Of a DNA stretch of 18,129 nucleotides, positions 3,167-18,129 are shown in pieces. The notes beneath the pieces were generated by a model, which worked only from the letters and a program-made list of their open reading frames with translations, ran no database searches and was not told the DNA's origin. The translations under genes and the position numbers were made by a program. Source of the stretch: a virus (Duplodnaviria > Heunggongvirae > Uroviricota > Caudoviricetes); the IMG/VR virus record IMGVR_UViG_3300012281_000006; one strand, given 5' to 3'. The stretch's first letter is position 1. Every line of letters starts with the position of its first letter.

Positions 3167-4756
3167 TTACTTAATAAGCAGCGGTACGCCCTGGATACGA
3201 CGGGCTACGCCAGTCGGGCAGCAGGCCCAGACTACTTCCCATTTATCGAATTCCGCCTGCGTAACTTTCAGCACATACGGTTCTGTACCGTCAGCATCAG
3301 GATCACGAGGAGCCACCAGAGCGCCGGAAGCGACAAAGCGATCTAAAAGTTTGGTCATCCCTTTAGTCAGGCCAGCCGCAGTAATACCGTCCGGGCTATG
3401 CTTCATCTGGCGGGCTAACTGGACAAAGAAACGGCTGATTGCATTCTTCAGGGATGGGACGTGCTGGAAGTGCAGATAGTTATCCTGCGTGCAGCAAGTT
3501 AAAGCATCGTCGATGATCATCTGGCCAGAGGTGCCAACAGATACTTTATTGAGACGGCCCTTGACCATTGCTTCTTCGTCCGGGGTATCTTCCGGATACA
3601 GCGGTTGAATTGACGCACGAGCAATGACGGCACGTTCTTCACCAGCCGGTGAGTAATGCCAACCGCCGACATCAGAGTTTTTCTTGACGCCACGAGCTTT
3701 CGCCGCGTACGCCACGCCAGACAGACCAAAGACCACACGGGATTGGGTCCATTTGTCTTTGCAGGAGAACGGGTAGTGATAGACAGAACAGCTTACATAA
3801 TCGGTACCAAGTAAACCGGTATCTTCAACAGCAGACAGCGCTTCCGTGTACGTCAATGTCGGTTTAACATCAAAGAAGCCATCAATCAGGCGATCAGAAC
3901 AGATATTACCTAACGCAGTGATCGCCGCATTGTCATAGCAGCCCAGGCCAAGAACAGCGGTGTACATGTACGGGGCATTGTTCAGCACTTTCACCGCACG
4001 CAGGTACGCAGCAGTTGAGATTTTCGATTGATCACCGTTGGTACCACCGGTGAACGCCAACGATTTTTTGTTTGTTACTTTCGCTGTCGAAATCAGCTCT
4101 TCATTAACAACCGCACGCAGATATTTAGAACGGGCTTCCAGAGCCGTAGGCAGATAACACAAGCGGCCCATGTCATCTTTCGCTTCTTCCGCCAAAGACA
4201 CAGTGTGTGTCTCCAGGGTCGTTACCACACCGAGCGAAGTCGTCTGGGTCAGTTTTAAGAGGAAGCGTTCATTGCCCGCACTGTCCGTTGTTGCCGTTTC
4301 GATGGTTAACTCACGGGTAGGTGAAATACACGGATCACCATCATCAACGTAGATAGCAAAGGCTTCGCCGCTATCAAGTTCAATTTCAGAACCGTATGGC
4401 AACGCACTGTAAGCTGGTTCGCCTGATTCATCGAACATAATAATCGGGAATTTCGCATCATCCGGAACAGCACGAACAACATAACCAGACGTTTGCTGAA
4501 TAGCTTCGTACACATGACGAATTGGTTCGAACTGTGAGCCGGAAGACGGTTTCAGCGGTTCGCCGAGAACATCTTCGTAATTGGACTCAGTAACAGCGAG
4601 AACAGTAAACGGCTTGCCACGCGCAAATACGCCAATACCAGCCCACAAGCTGCTATTTAATGCAACACCGGTAGATAACGTCGCATCGGCATTGATCGGG
4701 CTAACCGCGACGCCGGATGCATTACCTAATGACTGTTGAATTGAATATTGAGACAT
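3167..4756 (-). CDS. Putative contractile tail sheath protein, 529 aa (P1 gp22-like by size and position)
   Basis: 529-aa ORF (~57 kDa) second in the operon; size and position match what I recall for the P1 sheath protein; no diagnostic motif. Confidence 0.6.
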   Translation of the reverse strand: MSQYSIQQSLGNASGVAVSPINADATLSTGVALNSSLWAGIGVFARGKPFTVLAVTESNYEDVLGEPLKPSSGSQFEPIRHVYEAIQQTSGYVVRAVPDDAKFPIIMFDESGEPAYSALPYGSEIELDSGEAFAIYVDDGDPCISPTRELTIETATTDSAGNERFLLKLTQTTSLGVVTTLETHTVSLAEEAKDDMGRLCYLPTALEARSKYLRAVVNEELISTAKVTNKKSLAFTGGTNGDQSKISTAAYLRAVKVLNNAPYMYTAVLGLGCYDNAAITALGNICSDRLIDGFFDVKPTLTYTEALSAVEDTGLLGTDYVSCSVYHYPFSCKDKWTQSRVVFGLSGVAYAAKARGVKKNSDVGGWHYSPAGEERAVIARASIQPLYPEDTPDEEAMVKGRLNKVSVGTSGQMIIDDALTCCTQDNYLHFQHVPSLKNAISRFFVQLARQMKHSPDGITAAGLTKGMTKLLDRFVASGALVAPRDPDADGTEPYVLKVTQAEFDKWEVVWACCPTGVARRIQGVPLLIK

Positions 4757-4816: not shown

Positions 4817-6544
4817 TTACTCAGAGTCACCGGCATCAATCGTGTCGCCGCTTATGAAGTTAAGCCCGCCTTTTTTGGCCATTGTCAGCGTTACACGAGT
4901 GAAGTAATCAGCGCCGTTGCGTGGGTGCATATCGTTGATAGCCGAACCCCACAGTGTGGTACGGTTGACCAGCGCCGGAGTGGTCGGATGCTGGAACGGG
5001 ATCGCCGGGACAGCATCACCAGTCACGAAGCCTGCTTTACCCGGATTTTCATCACGGACGTAGCACAGCACATCCATCGAGCTGAACTGAATGTTATCTG
5101 TCGTTAAGTTCTTACAAATACCAGCAGGTACTTCGTACACTTTCACGTTACCGAACAGGGTACCGATGTAGTGAACATACGGAGTCTGGATATAGTCTTC
5201 GGCTGGCTGGAAGAAATCCTTCGGCAACTGTTTGAAGAAAGATGCTGCATCAGCACCAGCAAACATCCCCATCGCACCAGAAGATTTAACGCGCTCAATA
5301 ATGTCGCGATATACAGTCTGGAATTTGCCACGAATGATGGTTGCCCATACATCAAAGGACTGGTTAACCGGCAGAGCGATGTCAAAGGTGTCGGTCGCAA
5401 GAGTGCGCCAGATCATGATGCGAAGACGCAGCATATCCTGTTCATGAGACAGGTATTCCTTCAGGGTGCGGAACTGTAGGGAACCCAGGTCCAGACCAAA
5501 TTCACGCTGTGCTTCATACGCCGCCTGTACCGTGTGCTCAGCCGCGATAACGAACTGACTTGGGAACAGGGTGTATTTCTTCATTTCGTGGTTGATCAGC
5601 GGGATCAGCTCAGGAGCGGCTTCAATATTGATTTCCGTCTCAATTGCGATCTCAGTGCCTTTATCCGGCGCTTTGGAGAACGACAGGGCAATCTGACCAA
5701 TGTTGTAGTTCAGAGAGCAGGTAACAGTGATTTGCTCACCAGCAGCATTAGTAAACGAGTGAAGTAGGCTGCCGGAACCGTTATCAACAACAGACTTAAT
5801 ACGGTTAACGTAGATGTTAGTGCGACCTTTTCGGATTGGTACATTCTGGCCTTCGAAGTCTTCCATCTTGAAGGTTGCGGTTTTGCTGGTGCCATCGGAG
5901 CTTGCCACCAGCACATAGCGGCGACGTAACTGGCTGTACACACCGACGGATTGCATGTCCAGAACATCACCAGCAGCATAAGAACCAAAAGAGGAACCTG
6001 CCACGTTAAAGACTTCATAGATGTCGGACTGGTCACGCGTAACCGGAATGAAGGTACACGCATCAGCGGTAGCTGCCCCCAACTGAACAGGCAGGATCAT
6101 CGCGAGGAATAAAGGCAGACGCATAACACCGTCAGAAACGCTCATCATCTCTGCTGCGACGGATTCCAGCATCGCTTTATTAGTGGCATCCATGCTATTG
6201 CGGGTGGACTCAATCAGGCAGTTTTCCAGCGTCTGGTGGCAGGAGGCCAGAATTTCCGGACGCGGCATAGATTTATGTGCTGCGGCGTAGTCAGCCAGTG
6301 CACTTGCCCACGCTGTAGCGATTTGAGCGGTGGCATTATCAGAGATACCCGCAAAAACCGGGTCTTTACGTGCTGCTTCAAGGATAGATGCGGCACGCGC
6401 GGCATCATCTTTAATGAATTGGTTATCAGTACCGAACTGCGCAGTGCTTGCCCAGCCAAGCACAGCTTTAGAGCGTTTTGCGATATCTGCAATACGATTC
6501 TGGTATTCGCGTAAGTTACTCAATTTACTCTTCCTTAAACACAA
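4817..6544 (-). CDS. Putative major head (capsid) protein precursor, 575 aa (P1 gp23-like by size and position)
   Basis: Longest ORF starts at TTG 6544; a better start is TTG at 6523 preceded by AAGGAAGAG; ~62 kDa product immediately downstream of parS, as I recall for P1 gene 23. Confidence 0.55.
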   Translation of the reverse strand: MCLRKSKLSNLREYQNRIADIAKRSKAVLGWASTAQFGTDNQFIKDDAARAASILEAARKDPVFAGISDNATAQIATAWASALADYAAAHKSMPRPEILASCHQTLENCLIESTRNSMDATNKAMLESVAAEMMSVSDGVMRLPLFLAMILPVQLGAATADACTFIPVTRDQSDIYEVFNVAGSSFGSYAAGDVLDMQSVGVYSQLRRRYVLVASSDGTSKTATFKMEDFEGQNVPIRKGRTNIYVNRIKSVVDNGSGSLLHSFTNAAGEQITVTCSLNYNIGQIALSFSKAPDKGTEIAIETEINIEAAPELIPLINHEMKKYTLFPSQFVIAAEHTVQAAYEAQREFGLDLGSLQFRTLKEYLSHEQDMLRLRIMIWRTLATDTFDIALPVNQSFDVWATIIRGKFQTVYRDIIERVKSSGAMGMFAGADAASFFKQLPKDFFQPAEDYIQTPYVHYIGTLFGNVKVYEVPAGICKNLTTDNIQFSSMDVLCYVRDENPGKAGFVTGDAVPAIPFQHPTTPALVNRTTLWGSAINDMHPRNGADYFTRVTLTMAKKGGLNFISGDTIDAGDSE

Positions 6545-16410: not shown

Positions 16411-16591
16411 AATGAATCGTGATTTATAGAGCGATTTAGCTGTTAGCCGCGACAGGCGCGGCGGTAAGCATGGCTGGGCCTAGTCCTCCCAGACAAACCA
16501 CCGAGTTGCCAGGTTGACCATGCGCCTAAGTGGTAACACCGAAGTGCGTTACGAGCTTCCAGTTTGCCCATCTTCGGGTGGGCGTTTTTTT
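16411..16591 (+). ncRNA. Candidate small late RNA (~180 nt) from the late promoter to the terminator at 16566-16591
   Basis: No convincing ORF (longest about 15 codons); internal hairpins GCCGCG/CGCGGC, CTGGG/CCCAG, GTAAC/GTTAC; bounded by promoter and terminator. Confidence 0.3.
16566..16591 (+). terminator. Rho-independent terminator (GCCCATC-TTCG-GGTGGGC followed by GTTTTTTT)
   Basis: 7-bp GC-rich stem with TTCG tetraloop and 7-T run. Confidence 0.8.
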
Positions 16592-16780
16592 CAGGGTTTT
16601 CGTCATGGTTAGCGACTTTGCGGCGGTTTAGAAACTGACCATTAAAGTAAATGCAAACGATGATCTGATGATGGTAGCGGCCTAAGAAGCCAGACGCCAC
16701 GGGGTATGAGTCGTCCCCCGTCAAAAAATCGACCGCAGAGTGTCCCCGTCTGTGTATTAGGGAACGGGGAGGCATAACAA

Positions 16781-16847
16781 GGTAAGGGCGCTGGTTCGAT
16801 TAACCAGGTGAGCGAGAAGGGGCCATCTTTTGGTCAGTGCCCTTACC
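16781..16847 (+). other. Structured element E1: GGTAAGGGC...GCCCTTACC stem enclosing a TTCGATT-containing hairpin; paralogous to 17220-17293
   Basis: Outer 9-10-bp stem shared with E2, including the flanks aaca(A/G)GGTAAGGG and CCCTTACC(n)GTT. Confidence 0.3.
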
Positions 16848-17057
16848 TGTTACGTCCTTTTTCATTCAGCGTAACAGCCATTGCTTAATGGCATCCTGGG
16901 AGAATTTCTTGTAACGGGTATATCCCGTCATGCTGAAGGCGCTAATCACGCTGGAAGCCAGGGTTGTGCATCCCCTGTTACCGAATTGCAGCCAGGGCGC
17001 GGTGCGCCGAAAAGCATACGGAGGTGGAAGCCCTCGCCGGAGACGTACCCGGCAAGT

Positions 17058-17133
17058 GATGGTGTAGCTCAGCGGTTAGAGCGGTTGACTGTTAATCAAC
17101 GGGTCGATGGTTCAAATCCATCCACCATCGCCA
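17058..17133 (+). tRNA. tRNA-Asn (anticodon GUU), CCA encoded
   Basis: Manual cloverleaf: acceptor GATGGTG/CACCATC, D-arm GCTC-AGCGGTTA-GAGC, anticodon loop CTGTTAA, T-arm GATGG-TTCAAAT-CCATC, discriminator G, CCA. Confidence 0.9.
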
Positions 17134-17135
17134 AT

Positions 17136-17211
17136 GCCGGTTTAGCTCAGTTGGTAGAGCGCCTGCCTTGTAAGCAGGATGTCAGCGGTTCGAGTCCGTT
17201 AATCGGCACCA
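17136..17211 (+). tRNA. tRNA-Thr (anticodon UGU), CCA encoded
   Basis: Manual cloverleaf: acceptor GCCGGTT/AATCGGC, D-arm GCTC-AGTTGGTA-GAGC, anticodon stem CCTGC/GCAGG with loop CTTGTAA, T-loop TTCGAGT, discriminator A, CCA; starts 2 nt after tRNA-Asn. Confidence 0.9.
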
Positions 17212-17219
17212 GCACAACA

Positions 17220-17293
17220 GGTAAGGGTATTTTGCGACGTCGGAGATCGCCGAGCTTGGCAGAGGGTTCGAATCCCTACGAAGTACCCTTACC
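17220..17293 (+). other. Structured element E2: 10-bp stem GGTAAGGGTA/TACCCTTACC enclosing a GGGTTCGAATCCC T-arm-like hairpin; tRNA-like but not a canonical cloverleaf
   Basis: Perfect T-loop motif but no 7-bp acceptor pairing adjacent to the T-stem; paralogous to E1. Confidence 0.3.
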
Positions 17294-17444
17294 GTTGTGA
17301 GGAAACGCAGCTCTTTGAAGCAACCAGAAGATAAGCATCTGGCTTCACAACATAAACCGCAGGAACGACCAATAAACGGTAGTCCGTATGGAGAACACCC
17401 CGTTGAGGAAGAGGCCTGGCCGGAACCGTAACCGGCACTATAAC

Positions 17445-17526
17445 GTTGAGAACACTGGCGTAACGGGGTCATATCCCAATCTACGAATAAATGTTGCGTT
17501 GCAGCGTGACAACCAGTGTTCTCAAC
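17445..17526. repeat. 14-bp perfect inverted repeat (GTTGAGAACACTGG / CCAGTGTTCTCAAC) with 54-nt spacer; long hairpin in the tRNA-region spacer
   Basis: Exact reverse-complement arms at 17445-17458 and 17513-17526. Confidence 0.5.
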
Positions 17527-17686
17527 ATTGTGGTGAAAGCGCGTTGCTGGCGCGCAAGTCCGCCCTATGGCAACGAGGCGGCGTAGTAAATATCGATGCC
17601 TTAGTCATCAAGCGCACTGACCGGCCTTATGGGCTATGAACAAAAAGAGGCGCAGTCGGAGATCAGCACCGACCACCACAATCACT

Positions 17687-17773
17687 GGAGAGTAGGGAGC
17701 ATGGTGCTCAAGCGGTCTTGAAATCCGTCCCGTCGCGCAAGCGATGATGGTTCGATTCCATTACTCTCCGCCA
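17687..17773 (+). tRNA. Type II (long variable arm) tRNA-like gene, Ser-like, anticodon UGA predicted, CCA encoded; non-canonical D-arm
   Basis: Acceptor GGAGAGT/ACTCTCC, anticodon loop CTTGAAA (same loop as E. coli tRNA-Ser UGA as recalled), variable-arm hairpin TCGC-GCAA-GCGA, T-arm GATGG-TTCGATT-CCATT, discriminator G, CCA; one extra nucleotide before the D-stem and a T-T mismatch in the anticodon stem. Confidence 0.5.
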
Positions 17774-18036
17774 GCGCAACGTTAAGAGTATTTGGCTAAT
17801 TAAGCGAATGCCGGAAGCAGAACCGGATCACCAAATGCGTACAGGCGTCATCGCCGCCCAGCCAGCCAAATGCTCTTACCATTGCGGTGAATGCGGCTAA
17901 GCGCACGCGGGGAAATGGTTATATCAGTCCATTCATTTCTCCTTGTTTCCCCGTCCACGGTGGATAACCAGCCAAAGGACACCGGGAGGCACCCGGCACC
18001 GCAACCTTATTTCCCAACCAGTAATGAGGTTAATAA

Positions 18037-18129
18037 ATGCTCGGCATTCTCAAAAAGAAATTCCGCAAAGCGGCTGGCGGAGTCAAGAAGATGGAAAACC
18101 GTGATGCGGTGGAAGCGACCGTCTGGGGC
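18037..18129 (+). CDS. 5' end of a hypothetical protein gene running off the window (MLGILKKKFRKAAGGVKKMENRDAVEATVWG...)
   Basis: ATG at 18037 with TGAGG SD 8 nt upstream; frame open to the window end. Confidence 0.45.
   Translation, partial: MLGILKKKFRKAAGGVKKMENRDAVEATVWG

Follow-up and report, generated by a model that had tools for sequence, protein, structure and literature searches.

Paralogous long hairpins at the borders of RNA cassettes in the predicted ban operon leader of a P1-like phage-plasmid, and their possible role in RNA processing

The window analysed here is an 18,129-nucleotide (nt) stretch of viral DNA (Caudoviricetes; IMG/VR record IMGVR_UViG_3300012281_000006) which, towards its end, carries two structured elements, E1 and E2, on either side of a pair of transfer RNA (tRNA) genes. 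Positions 16400-17900 match P1-like phage-plasmids, the best match being a Salmonella plasmid at 99.9%, and P1, P7 and D6 are 92-96% identical across the shared parts; judged by this similarity, the source of the window is a P1-like phage-plasmid. According to the annotations of P1, P7 and D6, the region directly follows the methyltransferase gene dmt and extends from the C1-controlled ban promoters and operator to tciA, and the same records place a "dicF-like region" and tRNA genes inside the leader, on the same strand as Pban. The operon order is dmt, Pban with the C1 operator, leader and tciA...ban, with tciA starting near position 18038. By correspondence with these annotations, E1 and E2 are located in the untranslated leader, about 1.6 kb long, of the C1-controlled ban operon, on its + strand, and transcription from Pban would run through both.

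E1 and E2 had been described in an initial annotation as two paralogous tRNA-like structured elements flanking the tRNA genes, with coordinates and sequences that proved right. The sequence GGTAAGGG occurs on the + strand at 16781-16788 and 17220-17227, and its complement CCCTTACC at 16840-16847 and 17286-17293; these four copies, all in E1 and E2, are the only ones in 18 kb, with 0.33 expected and none of 200 shuffles reaching four. Inner hairpins are found at 16791-16807 in E1 (CTGGTTCGATTAACCAG) and at 17264-17276 in E2 (GGGTTCGAATCCC), and the interior of E2 is made of a small hairpin and the T-arm-like hairpin AGGGTTCGAATCCCT. The + strand folds at -36.1 kcal/mol for E1 (z -4.87 relative to shuffles) and -41.6 kcal/mol for E2 (z -5.44), which is 7-9 kcal/mol better than the - strand (-27.2 and -34.4 kcal/mol, respectively). 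A stem is thus present at the base of each element, as had been claimed, but it exceeds the proposed 9-10 base pairs (bp): E1 has AACA/UGUU (4 bp) plus 14 bp, and E2 has CACAAC/GUUGUG (6 bp) plus 15 bp with a single bulged A. Similarly, E2 does adjoin tRNA-Thr, with its core beginning 8 nt past the CCA and its outer stem about 2 nt past it. Among relatives, E1 is the most variable segment of the leader (identity 0.81-0.90) and E2 is nearly invariant in more than 45 loci.

Both elements are there, but instead of forming a pair they belong to a set of at least four long hairpins in the window, the third and fourth being E4 and E3 (Table 1). E3 starts right after the CCA of tRNA-Ser, and the arms of E4 differ from those of E1 and E2 by compensatory changes. 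Hairpins of this family consist of a slightly irregular stem of 19-27 bp enclosing a variable interior of 30-80 nt; arm positions number 23 in E4, 26 in E3 and 19 to 27 in relatives. The stem base takes the form CA(C/Y)(A/R)CAAC...GUUG(Y)G and the inner box the form G(G/U)U(A/G)AG(G/A)N...N(C/U)CU(C/U)(A/U)(A/C)C. None of the hairpins within the window is followed by a U-tract (terminator check of 16300-18129), and their identity as intrinsic terminators was ruled out on this ground.

Viral contigs were scanned with a sequence pattern and then by local BLAST, which together yielded 54 related leaders; an arms-only covariance model missed even known copies because of the long interiors, and regular expressions combined with pairing scripts were used instead. 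At least eight hairpin types are distributed across these leaders, including a 62-nt type, the 73-nt P1 type, an 81-nt type with a perfect T-arm and an 86-88-nt type found in a separate family of phage-plasmid-like genomes of about 108 kb, to which Escherichia phage Cyrano belongs. The positional homologue of E1 in phage Cyrano has a stem of 27 positions (25 paired) built from different but compensating arms. In the Cyrano-type family, the hairpins flanking the tRNA block lie at 4421-4527 and 5100-5185 in leader L006 and at 2116-2237 and 2751-2836 in L129; their arms, CAACGTTGAG(A/G)CC... and ACAGCGTTGAGCGG..., show compensatory differences between each other and relative to the P1 types, and a clear intrinsic terminator closes the Cyrano-type leader. 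The same hairpin design, exemplified by the arms AACGATGAGAGTATT / AATGCTCTCATCGTT, is found ahead of STnc100-like modules in lambdoid phages as well: Salmonella phage 118970_sal3 and Cronobacter phage phiES15 have it in their early-left regions, and a short form stands before an STnc100-like module in the e14 prophage of E. coli K-12. The exact P1-type stem gave one match in 185,579 species representative genomes, a P1-like contig, and is therefore not widespread.

Pairing in the stems was evaluated on 24 distinct arm variants, over 6 outer and 13 inner pairs forming a 19-bp stem. Standard pairs make up 95.4% of cells, an absolute percentage that leans towards structure since the members were chosen by a pattern already requiring parts of the arms. 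Both sides have changed in 11 of the 19 pairs, a count made after the junction bulges had been trimmed by hand (MAFFT misplaced the bulged A), which somewhat favours structure. None of 500 shuffles reached the observed pairing and covariation values, and sliding the partner by 1-3 columns lowered pairing to 33-54%; despite the caveat on selection and trimming, the compensatory differences between types are visible in the raw sequences. Of the cells in the 13 inner pairs, 21 are G.U or U.G and none is A.C; A.C and C.A cells occur only among the outer pairs, some of them at a junction position that recurs and at which an A is bulged in other members. In E1 orthologues the 5' arm is fixed and the 3' arm toggles between C and U opposite G, mostly exchanging GC for GU. 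A protein-bound DNA palindrome would not show this pattern of wobble and compensatory pairs, which indicates that the hairpins are selected for pairing as RNA, or at least as a single strand of + polarity. Covariation in relatives had been put forward as a check by the initial annotation, and its proposal that E1 and E2 are paralogous structured RNAs is both supported and extended by the family-wide covariation and the strand-specific wobble pairs.

The position of the hairpins along the leader is equally regular. All 54 leaders share one module syntax in our module maps: a tag module, a hairpin, a tRNA set and a hairpin come first; then an optional STnc100-like module with a 62-nt hairpin, followed by a hairpin and an STnc100-like module; and finally an optional tRNA-Ser with a hairpin, then an STnc100-like module and tciA. 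The tRNA set varies (Asn-Thr, Arg-Thr, Asn-Tyr-Thr, Arg-Tyr-Thr, Asn alone, or none), and the Cyrano family has the same module order. Hairpins stand between cassettes in every module map and tRNA-Thr is always followed by one, so that their location at cassette borders is an observation of this analysis, as is the existence of the hairpins themselves.

Table 1. Hairpins and neighbouring features of the ban leader in the window.
Feature	Position	Strand	Description
C1 operator and Pban promoter region	16373..16404	+	P1 annotation carried over by alignment; palindrome found in repeat scan
tmRNA-like tag module	16593..16775	+	Directly upstream of E1; tag at 16653-16685
E1 hairpin	16776..16851	+	5' arm AACAAGGTAAGGGCGCTG, 3' arm CAGTGCCCTTACCTGTT; directly follows tmRNA-like tag module
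tRNA-Asn(GUU)	17058-17133	+	ARAGORN; cassette between E1 and E2
tRNA-Thr(UGU)	17136-17211	+	ARAGORN; cassette between E1 and E2
E2 hairpin	17213..17299	+	CACAAC/GTTGTG outer stem, bulged A, 15-bp inner stem GGTAAGGGTATTTTG/CGAAGTACCCTTACC
E4 (third hairpin)	17436..17535	+	Arms CACTATAACGTTGAGAACACTGG / CCAGTGTTCTCAACATTGTGGTG; repeat-scan arms AACGTTGAGAACACTGG / CCAGTGTTCTCAAC
Second, weaker STnc100-like copy	~17529-17681	+	Read from sequence
tRNA-Ser(UGA)	17687-17773	+	ARAGORN; between third (E4) and fourth (E3) hairpins
E3 (fourth hairpin)	17772..17889	+	Arms CAGCGCAACGTTAAGAGTATTTGGCT / AGCCAAATGCTCTTACCATTGCGGTG; repeat-scan arms AACGTTAAGAGTATTTGG / CCAAATGCTCTTACC
STnc100-like module	17883..18003	+	Rfam RF02076, 37.8 bits, E 3e-6; closed by UGCGGUG/CACCGCA

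Breakpoints between relatives coincide with hairpin arms. The segment 17282-17304 is duplicated around an inserted module with its 62-nt hairpin, the inserted segment being flanked by a 15-nt direct repeat; other rearrangement junctions lie at 17540/17869; and an E4/E3 hybrid with its junction at 17484/17869 is present in at least three natural genomes, where its arms are unpaired (free energy -18 to -19). Breakpoints placed at the arms and a combinatorial module order are in line with the view that the hairpins are inverted repeats acting at the DNA level, as attC-like or homologous recombination joints for RNA-gene cassettes and with no role as RNA; the AAC...GTT flanks and the bulged base also recall, superficially, the R boxes of attC. 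We give this view a very low probability, given that the compensatory changes, with G.U pairs specific to one strand, point to a folded + strand, that is, the transcript, that a 15-nt direct repeat at the insert is as expected from ordinary homologous or unequal exchange, and that the exact stem was matched in a single P1-like contig among the species representative genomes. Moreover, an integron-type integrase (IntI) is not known from P1-like genomes.

Two smaller repeated motifs were observed in the same region. The first, GUAACGGG(N)U(C)AUAUCCC, is a small hairpin present at 16910-16930 (in the module after E1), at 17459-17480 (inside E4) and in the fourth hairpin of P1 (L001 ~2841-2865), and is the crossover point of the E4/E3 hybrids. 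The second, the small hairpin GCCGGA-N6-ACCGG(CA), is repeated at 17036-17052, 17419-17435, 17810-17826 and ~17980-17998, that is, before tRNA-Asn, before E4, inside E3 and in the STnc100-like module.

The initial annotation had left three options for E1 and E2 (degenerate tRNA pseudogenes, processing signals for the tRNA transcript, or small stable RNAs), among which processing signals appear to fit best, with the signals serving the whole RNA cassette array. The reading that we favour, and hold tentatively, is that E1 and E2 are transcribed punctuation hairpins in the ban leader, possibly processing or insulating sites of the RNase III type. Hairpins would separate independently functional RNA cassettes, namely the tag module, the tRNA sets and the STnc100/PasD-like modules, and their stems would be cut by a double-stranded RNA endonuclease, for which the host RNase III is the obvious candidate. 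Cutting would release the cassettes, provide an entry point for the trimming of tRNA 3' trailers and uncouple the stability of the upstream RNA from that of the downstream tciA-ban mRNA. Insulation of neighbouring folds, and the use of the conserved arms as joints for homologous cassette exchange between relatives, could be by-products of such an arrangement.

RNase III holds about 22 bp in its binding valley, and paired RNase III cuts in vivo are a median of 58 nt apart, with sites found also next to tRNAs (PMC6212723). Reading the hairpins as RNase III sites draws on the agreement of their stem length and arm distance with those data (PMC6212723), and from the presence of a duplex between RNA units with no U-tract. 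About two helical turns (~20-22 bp) of intramolecular double-stranded RNA can be counted in the four hairpins of the window: 4+14 bp in E1, 6+15 in E2, 23 in E4 and 26 in E3. RNase III processes the DicF RNA of the homologous dicB operon as well as the lambda N leader, and ribosomal RNA (rRNA) operons likewise use flanking stems for processing.

Several points weigh against RNase III-type processing at these sites. No RNA-end or RNase data on the leader region were found in the searchable literature. One stretch of the stem, GGUAAGRG, shows a sequence conservation for which RNase III has no need; it may reflect recent duplication or gene conversion, or else a sequence-specific factor. The e14 hairpin, with only about 12-13 bp, is short for RNase III, and E1 of P1 itself has one U.U mismatch in its stem. 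Because the closing helices of adjacent modules offer alternative partners to the outer 6-9 nt of the hairpins, it is uncertain how the stem base folds in vivo. Phage Cyrano carries three tRNAs separated by 2-8-nt spacers with no hairpins between them, so tRNA maturation as such can proceed without such elements. Lastly, the occurrence of the E4/E3 hybrid with unpaired arms in natural genomes implies that at least one site is dispensable.

While the stems are shared, the interiors are variable or dispensable. They are unrelated between types, and RNAalifold applied to the post-tRNA hairpins retained only the stem. This bears on the suggestion that E1 and E2 represent decayed tRNA genes, or stable RNAs resembling tRNAs and acting by mimicry, for example as substrates of RNase P or of the CCA enzyme or as decoys for tRNA-binding proteins. 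E2 holds the canonical T-loop 11-mer GGTTCGAATCC, one of four in the window, where 0.07 are expected by chance and the other three lie in true tRNAs. As read from sequence and fold, its T hairpin abuts a 7-bp helix followed by ACC, in the manner of an acceptor/T minihelix. T-arm-like hairpins recur elsewhere in the family (the L004 hairpin type holds GTAGAGTTCGACTCTCTAC, and 118970_sal3 holds two), E2 is almost invariant, and a precedent exists in the C4 RNA of P1, which is an RNase P substrate. A T-arm-like hairpin is indeed present in both E1 and E2, as the initial annotation had it, but the TTCGATT loop of E1 is not kept (P1 has TGTGATT), and a T arm with a UUCRANY loop is present in E2 and absent from E1 orthologues and from the positional homologues of E2: P7 carries at this position the 62-nt type without a T-loop, and the Cyrano-family counterpart, which has GGAUCUGAUUCC at that spot, lacks one too.

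Searches with tRNA models gave no fit for either element. ARAGORN called no tRNA on E1 or E2 by default, and in relaxed runs (-ps80 and -ps60, intron and mitochondrial modes) gave only low-score calls overlapping the true tRNA-Thr; neither element forms a canonical cloverleaf, as had been recognised. An Rfam scan at E<=10 returned no tRNA, transfer-messenger RNA (tmRNA) or Y-RNA-like match on E1 or E2, the only YrlA (RF02553) match, at 25.6 bits (gathering score 69), lying over the real tRNA-Asn and tRNA-Thr. A window search for a T arm with a 7-nt strand and NCCA, allowing any partner, found only the three true tRNAs. The likeness of E2 to the tRNAs of its neighbours and relatives ends at the 11-mer, and the covariation of the family resides in the long stem, not in the interior. 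We therefore consider tRNA mimicry by E1 and E2 very unlikely, and tRNA pseudogenes a weak description of them; the term "tRNA-like" applies, as far as the sequences go, at most to a relic inside E2. Its T-arm is best read as a relic, or as a co-opted piece, of a tRNA gene inside a punctuation hairpin. A donor for this T-arm was sought among the neighbouring tRNAs of relatives, where only the universal 11-mer matched. The arm GGUAAGGGU presumably corresponds to part of the anticodon arm of a host tRNA-Thr(GGU), a likeness that we take to be a coincidence.

The cassettes adjoining the hairpins include STnc100/PasD-like modules, whose closing helices, UGYGGUG/CACCRCA, show covariation (U-A to C-G). 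The module next to E3 matches STnc100 over model positions 31-147 only, below the gathering score of 47, and does not extend onto E1 or E2; the 5' strand of its closing helix overlaps the 3' outer strand of E3. This proximity allows the hairpins to be seen as the 5' structural domain of STnc100/PasD-type prophage small RNA units instead of cleavage sites, with a function as folding insulator, stabilising 5' stem or protein-binding helix, and the leader to be seen as tandem units with inserted tRNAs. The sequence GUG(A/G)(U/G)GAA(U/A)GC, with which an STnc100-like module starts, comes after each of E2, the 62-nt type, E4 and E3, a single hairpin directly precedes a single such module in 118970_sal3, phiES15 and e14, and positions 1-30 of the Rfam STnc100 model align over the 3' part of the hairpin. 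However, E1 and its Cyrano-family counterparts have no such module after them, the Rfam seed excludes the 5' arm, and the described small RNA starts inside the hairpin, an arrangement that fits processing at least equally well. All STnc100 matches here, in addition, fall below the gathering score. On balance this interpretation seems to us doubtful.

Examination of open reading frames (ORFs) revealed no credible + strand ORF in the leader, which is almost wholly predicted structure or known RNA genes, and the sole intrinsic-terminator-like site within 16300-18129 is that at 16565-16592. These three properties would suit a transcript of 1.6 kb kept folded throughout, in which hairpins, tRNAs and modules would be passive structure opposing Rho loading and 3' exonucleases. 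Passive folding leaves unexplained the conserved architecture of the stem, its partial sequence conservation and its strict placement at borders, and appears to us a very unlikely account of the hairpins. The terminator closes the segment 16499-16600, the counterpart of the P1 "dicF-like region"; lying upstream of the cassettes, it implies that these depend on read-through or on a further promoter.

The tmRNA-like module that adjoins E1 on its upstream side contains the tag GCAAACGATGATCTGATGATGGTAGCGGCCTAA, which translates as ANDDLMMVAA* and lacks an in-frame start codon; the resume-like sequence AAAGUAAAU lies before it. Conservation of the module is about 100% across 31 distinct P1-like leaders, and in the Cyrano-type family the same place is occupied by ANEEVYLAVA* and ANDNQYLAVA* (L129 ~1812-1844; L006 ~4120-4152), which are of the same length and differ by conservative changes. 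The module scores 25.7 bits with the Rfam tmRNA_permuted model (gathering score 47), the tag is called by ARAGORN only when thresholds are relaxed to 80%, and alignment with E. coli ssrA picks out the tag region but scores no better than shuffles. No recognisable tRNA-like domain was found with ARAGORN, Rfam or a T arm/NCCA search; ARAGORN -ps80 proposed three mutually inconsistent ones. E1 was also considered as the missing tRNA-like domain of this module, in permuted or standard arrangement, and rejected, as it offers no acceptor or NCCA partner, its T-like loop is unconserved and its interior cannot be aligned between families.

Other features of the region and of the window deserve mention. 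The tRNA-Ser(UGA) has an unusual architecture, with a long acceptor, a 6-bp D stem with a 4-nt loop and a long variable arm; it scores 42 bits on the tRNA-Sec model, the general tRNA model is silent at its gathering threshold, and the annotators of D6 reported that tRNAscan-SE did not call its amino acid. The plp frame of P1 ("putative lipoprotein"; L001 2281-2658) corresponds to window positions 17182-17472 on the - strand, antisense to tRNA-Thr, E2 and the following modules. In many relatives this frame is broken or varies in length (43-156 codons open); the conservation of the E2 region can therefore not be put down to coding, and judging from these sequences plp is probably not a real gene. 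Further away, the sok antitoxin RNA of a hok/sok system is found at 762-936 (Rfam RF01794, 109.8 bits), and a cluster of direct and inverted 15-16-nt repeats, ATGTGTGCTGGAGGG, at 9330-9519 presumably corresponds to the RepA iterons of the P1 plasmid replicon.

If the hairpins are processing sites, they would explain how one repressor-controlled promoter yields several tRNAs, small RNAs and the tciA-ban mRNA from one transcript. They would also make it simple to mark where the RNA-gene cassettes that are shuffled among phage-plasmids and lambdoid prophages begin and end. A more ambitious reading would make them dedicated, sequence-specific punctuation directing RNA excision within a modular, recombining array of non-coding RNA cassettes, with the hairpins also serving as joints for exchange among P1-like and Cyrano-type phage-plasmids and lambdoid prophages and the T-loop-bearing core of E2 persisting as an active tRNA mimic; as a whole, this composite strikes us as improbable. 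The study of the hairpins exposed the adjacent, highly conserved tmRNA-like tag module, which is probably the more surprising object of the region.

Hairpins of this kind are not described in Rfam 15, in the P1, P7 and D6 records or in the searchable literature, and the 535 features of the P1 record make no mention of them. Comparison with known systems helps to situate them. Like the attC sites of integrons, they are imperfect inverted repeats of 60-110 nt bordering cassettes, with an AAC...GTT base, an extrahelical base and a variable centre. Here, in contrast to the promoterless ORFs of integrons, the cassettes are tRNA and small RNA genes in the leader of a phage operon, the folded strand is the transcript and exchange looks homologous. 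AAC...GTT is present in most hairpins, but the fuller RYYYAAC/GTTRRRY consensus of the attC boxes is absent (E2 has GCACAAC/GTTGTGA), and we regard the resemblance as superficial. ERIC/IRU and REP elements share with them the nature of long, transcribed imperfect palindromes inside operons, able to affect RNA processing or stability, whereas the present hairpins occur only in these phage leaders and are not scattered through genomes. A kinship with ERIC/IRU was dismissed after local alignment of E1-E4 and of E1 from P1 to an ERIC copy of E. coli, in both orientations, scored no higher than shuffles.

With tRNA genes, tRNA pseudogenes and tRNA-like RNAs such as the tRNA-like domain of tmRNA and the YrlA Y RNA they have in common the T-loop hairpin of E2 and of some other members, and the location in a phage tRNA cluster; they differ in having no acceptor, D or anticodon architecture, no match to the models and a T-loop that is unconserved across positional homologues. 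STnc100 (RF02076) and PasD are related to them by position, a family hairpin directly preceding STnc100-like modules in the window, 118970_sal3, phiES15 and e14. The 5' end of the Rfam model overlaps only the 3' arm, however, the whole hairpin lies outside the model, E1 has no following module, and every match is sub-gathering.

The closest likeness is to the stem-loops cut by RNase III, such as the R sites of the T7 early region, the lambda N-leader site, the stems flanking rRNAs and DicF, the dicB/DicF case having a further parallel in the dicF-like region that the P1 annotation places in the ban leader. In both, slightly irregular duplexes of about 20 bp or more stand between the units of one long transcript, in several paralogous copies and with no U-tract. 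The hairpins of the ban leader differ in that their cleavage is put forward by analogy, that their interiors are large (30-80 nt) and sometimes hold T-arm-like hairpins, that part of the stem is conserved in sequence and that the units they separate are non-coding RNAs. With a structure that is well supported, they look like newly described inter-unit processing stem-loops of phage transcripts.

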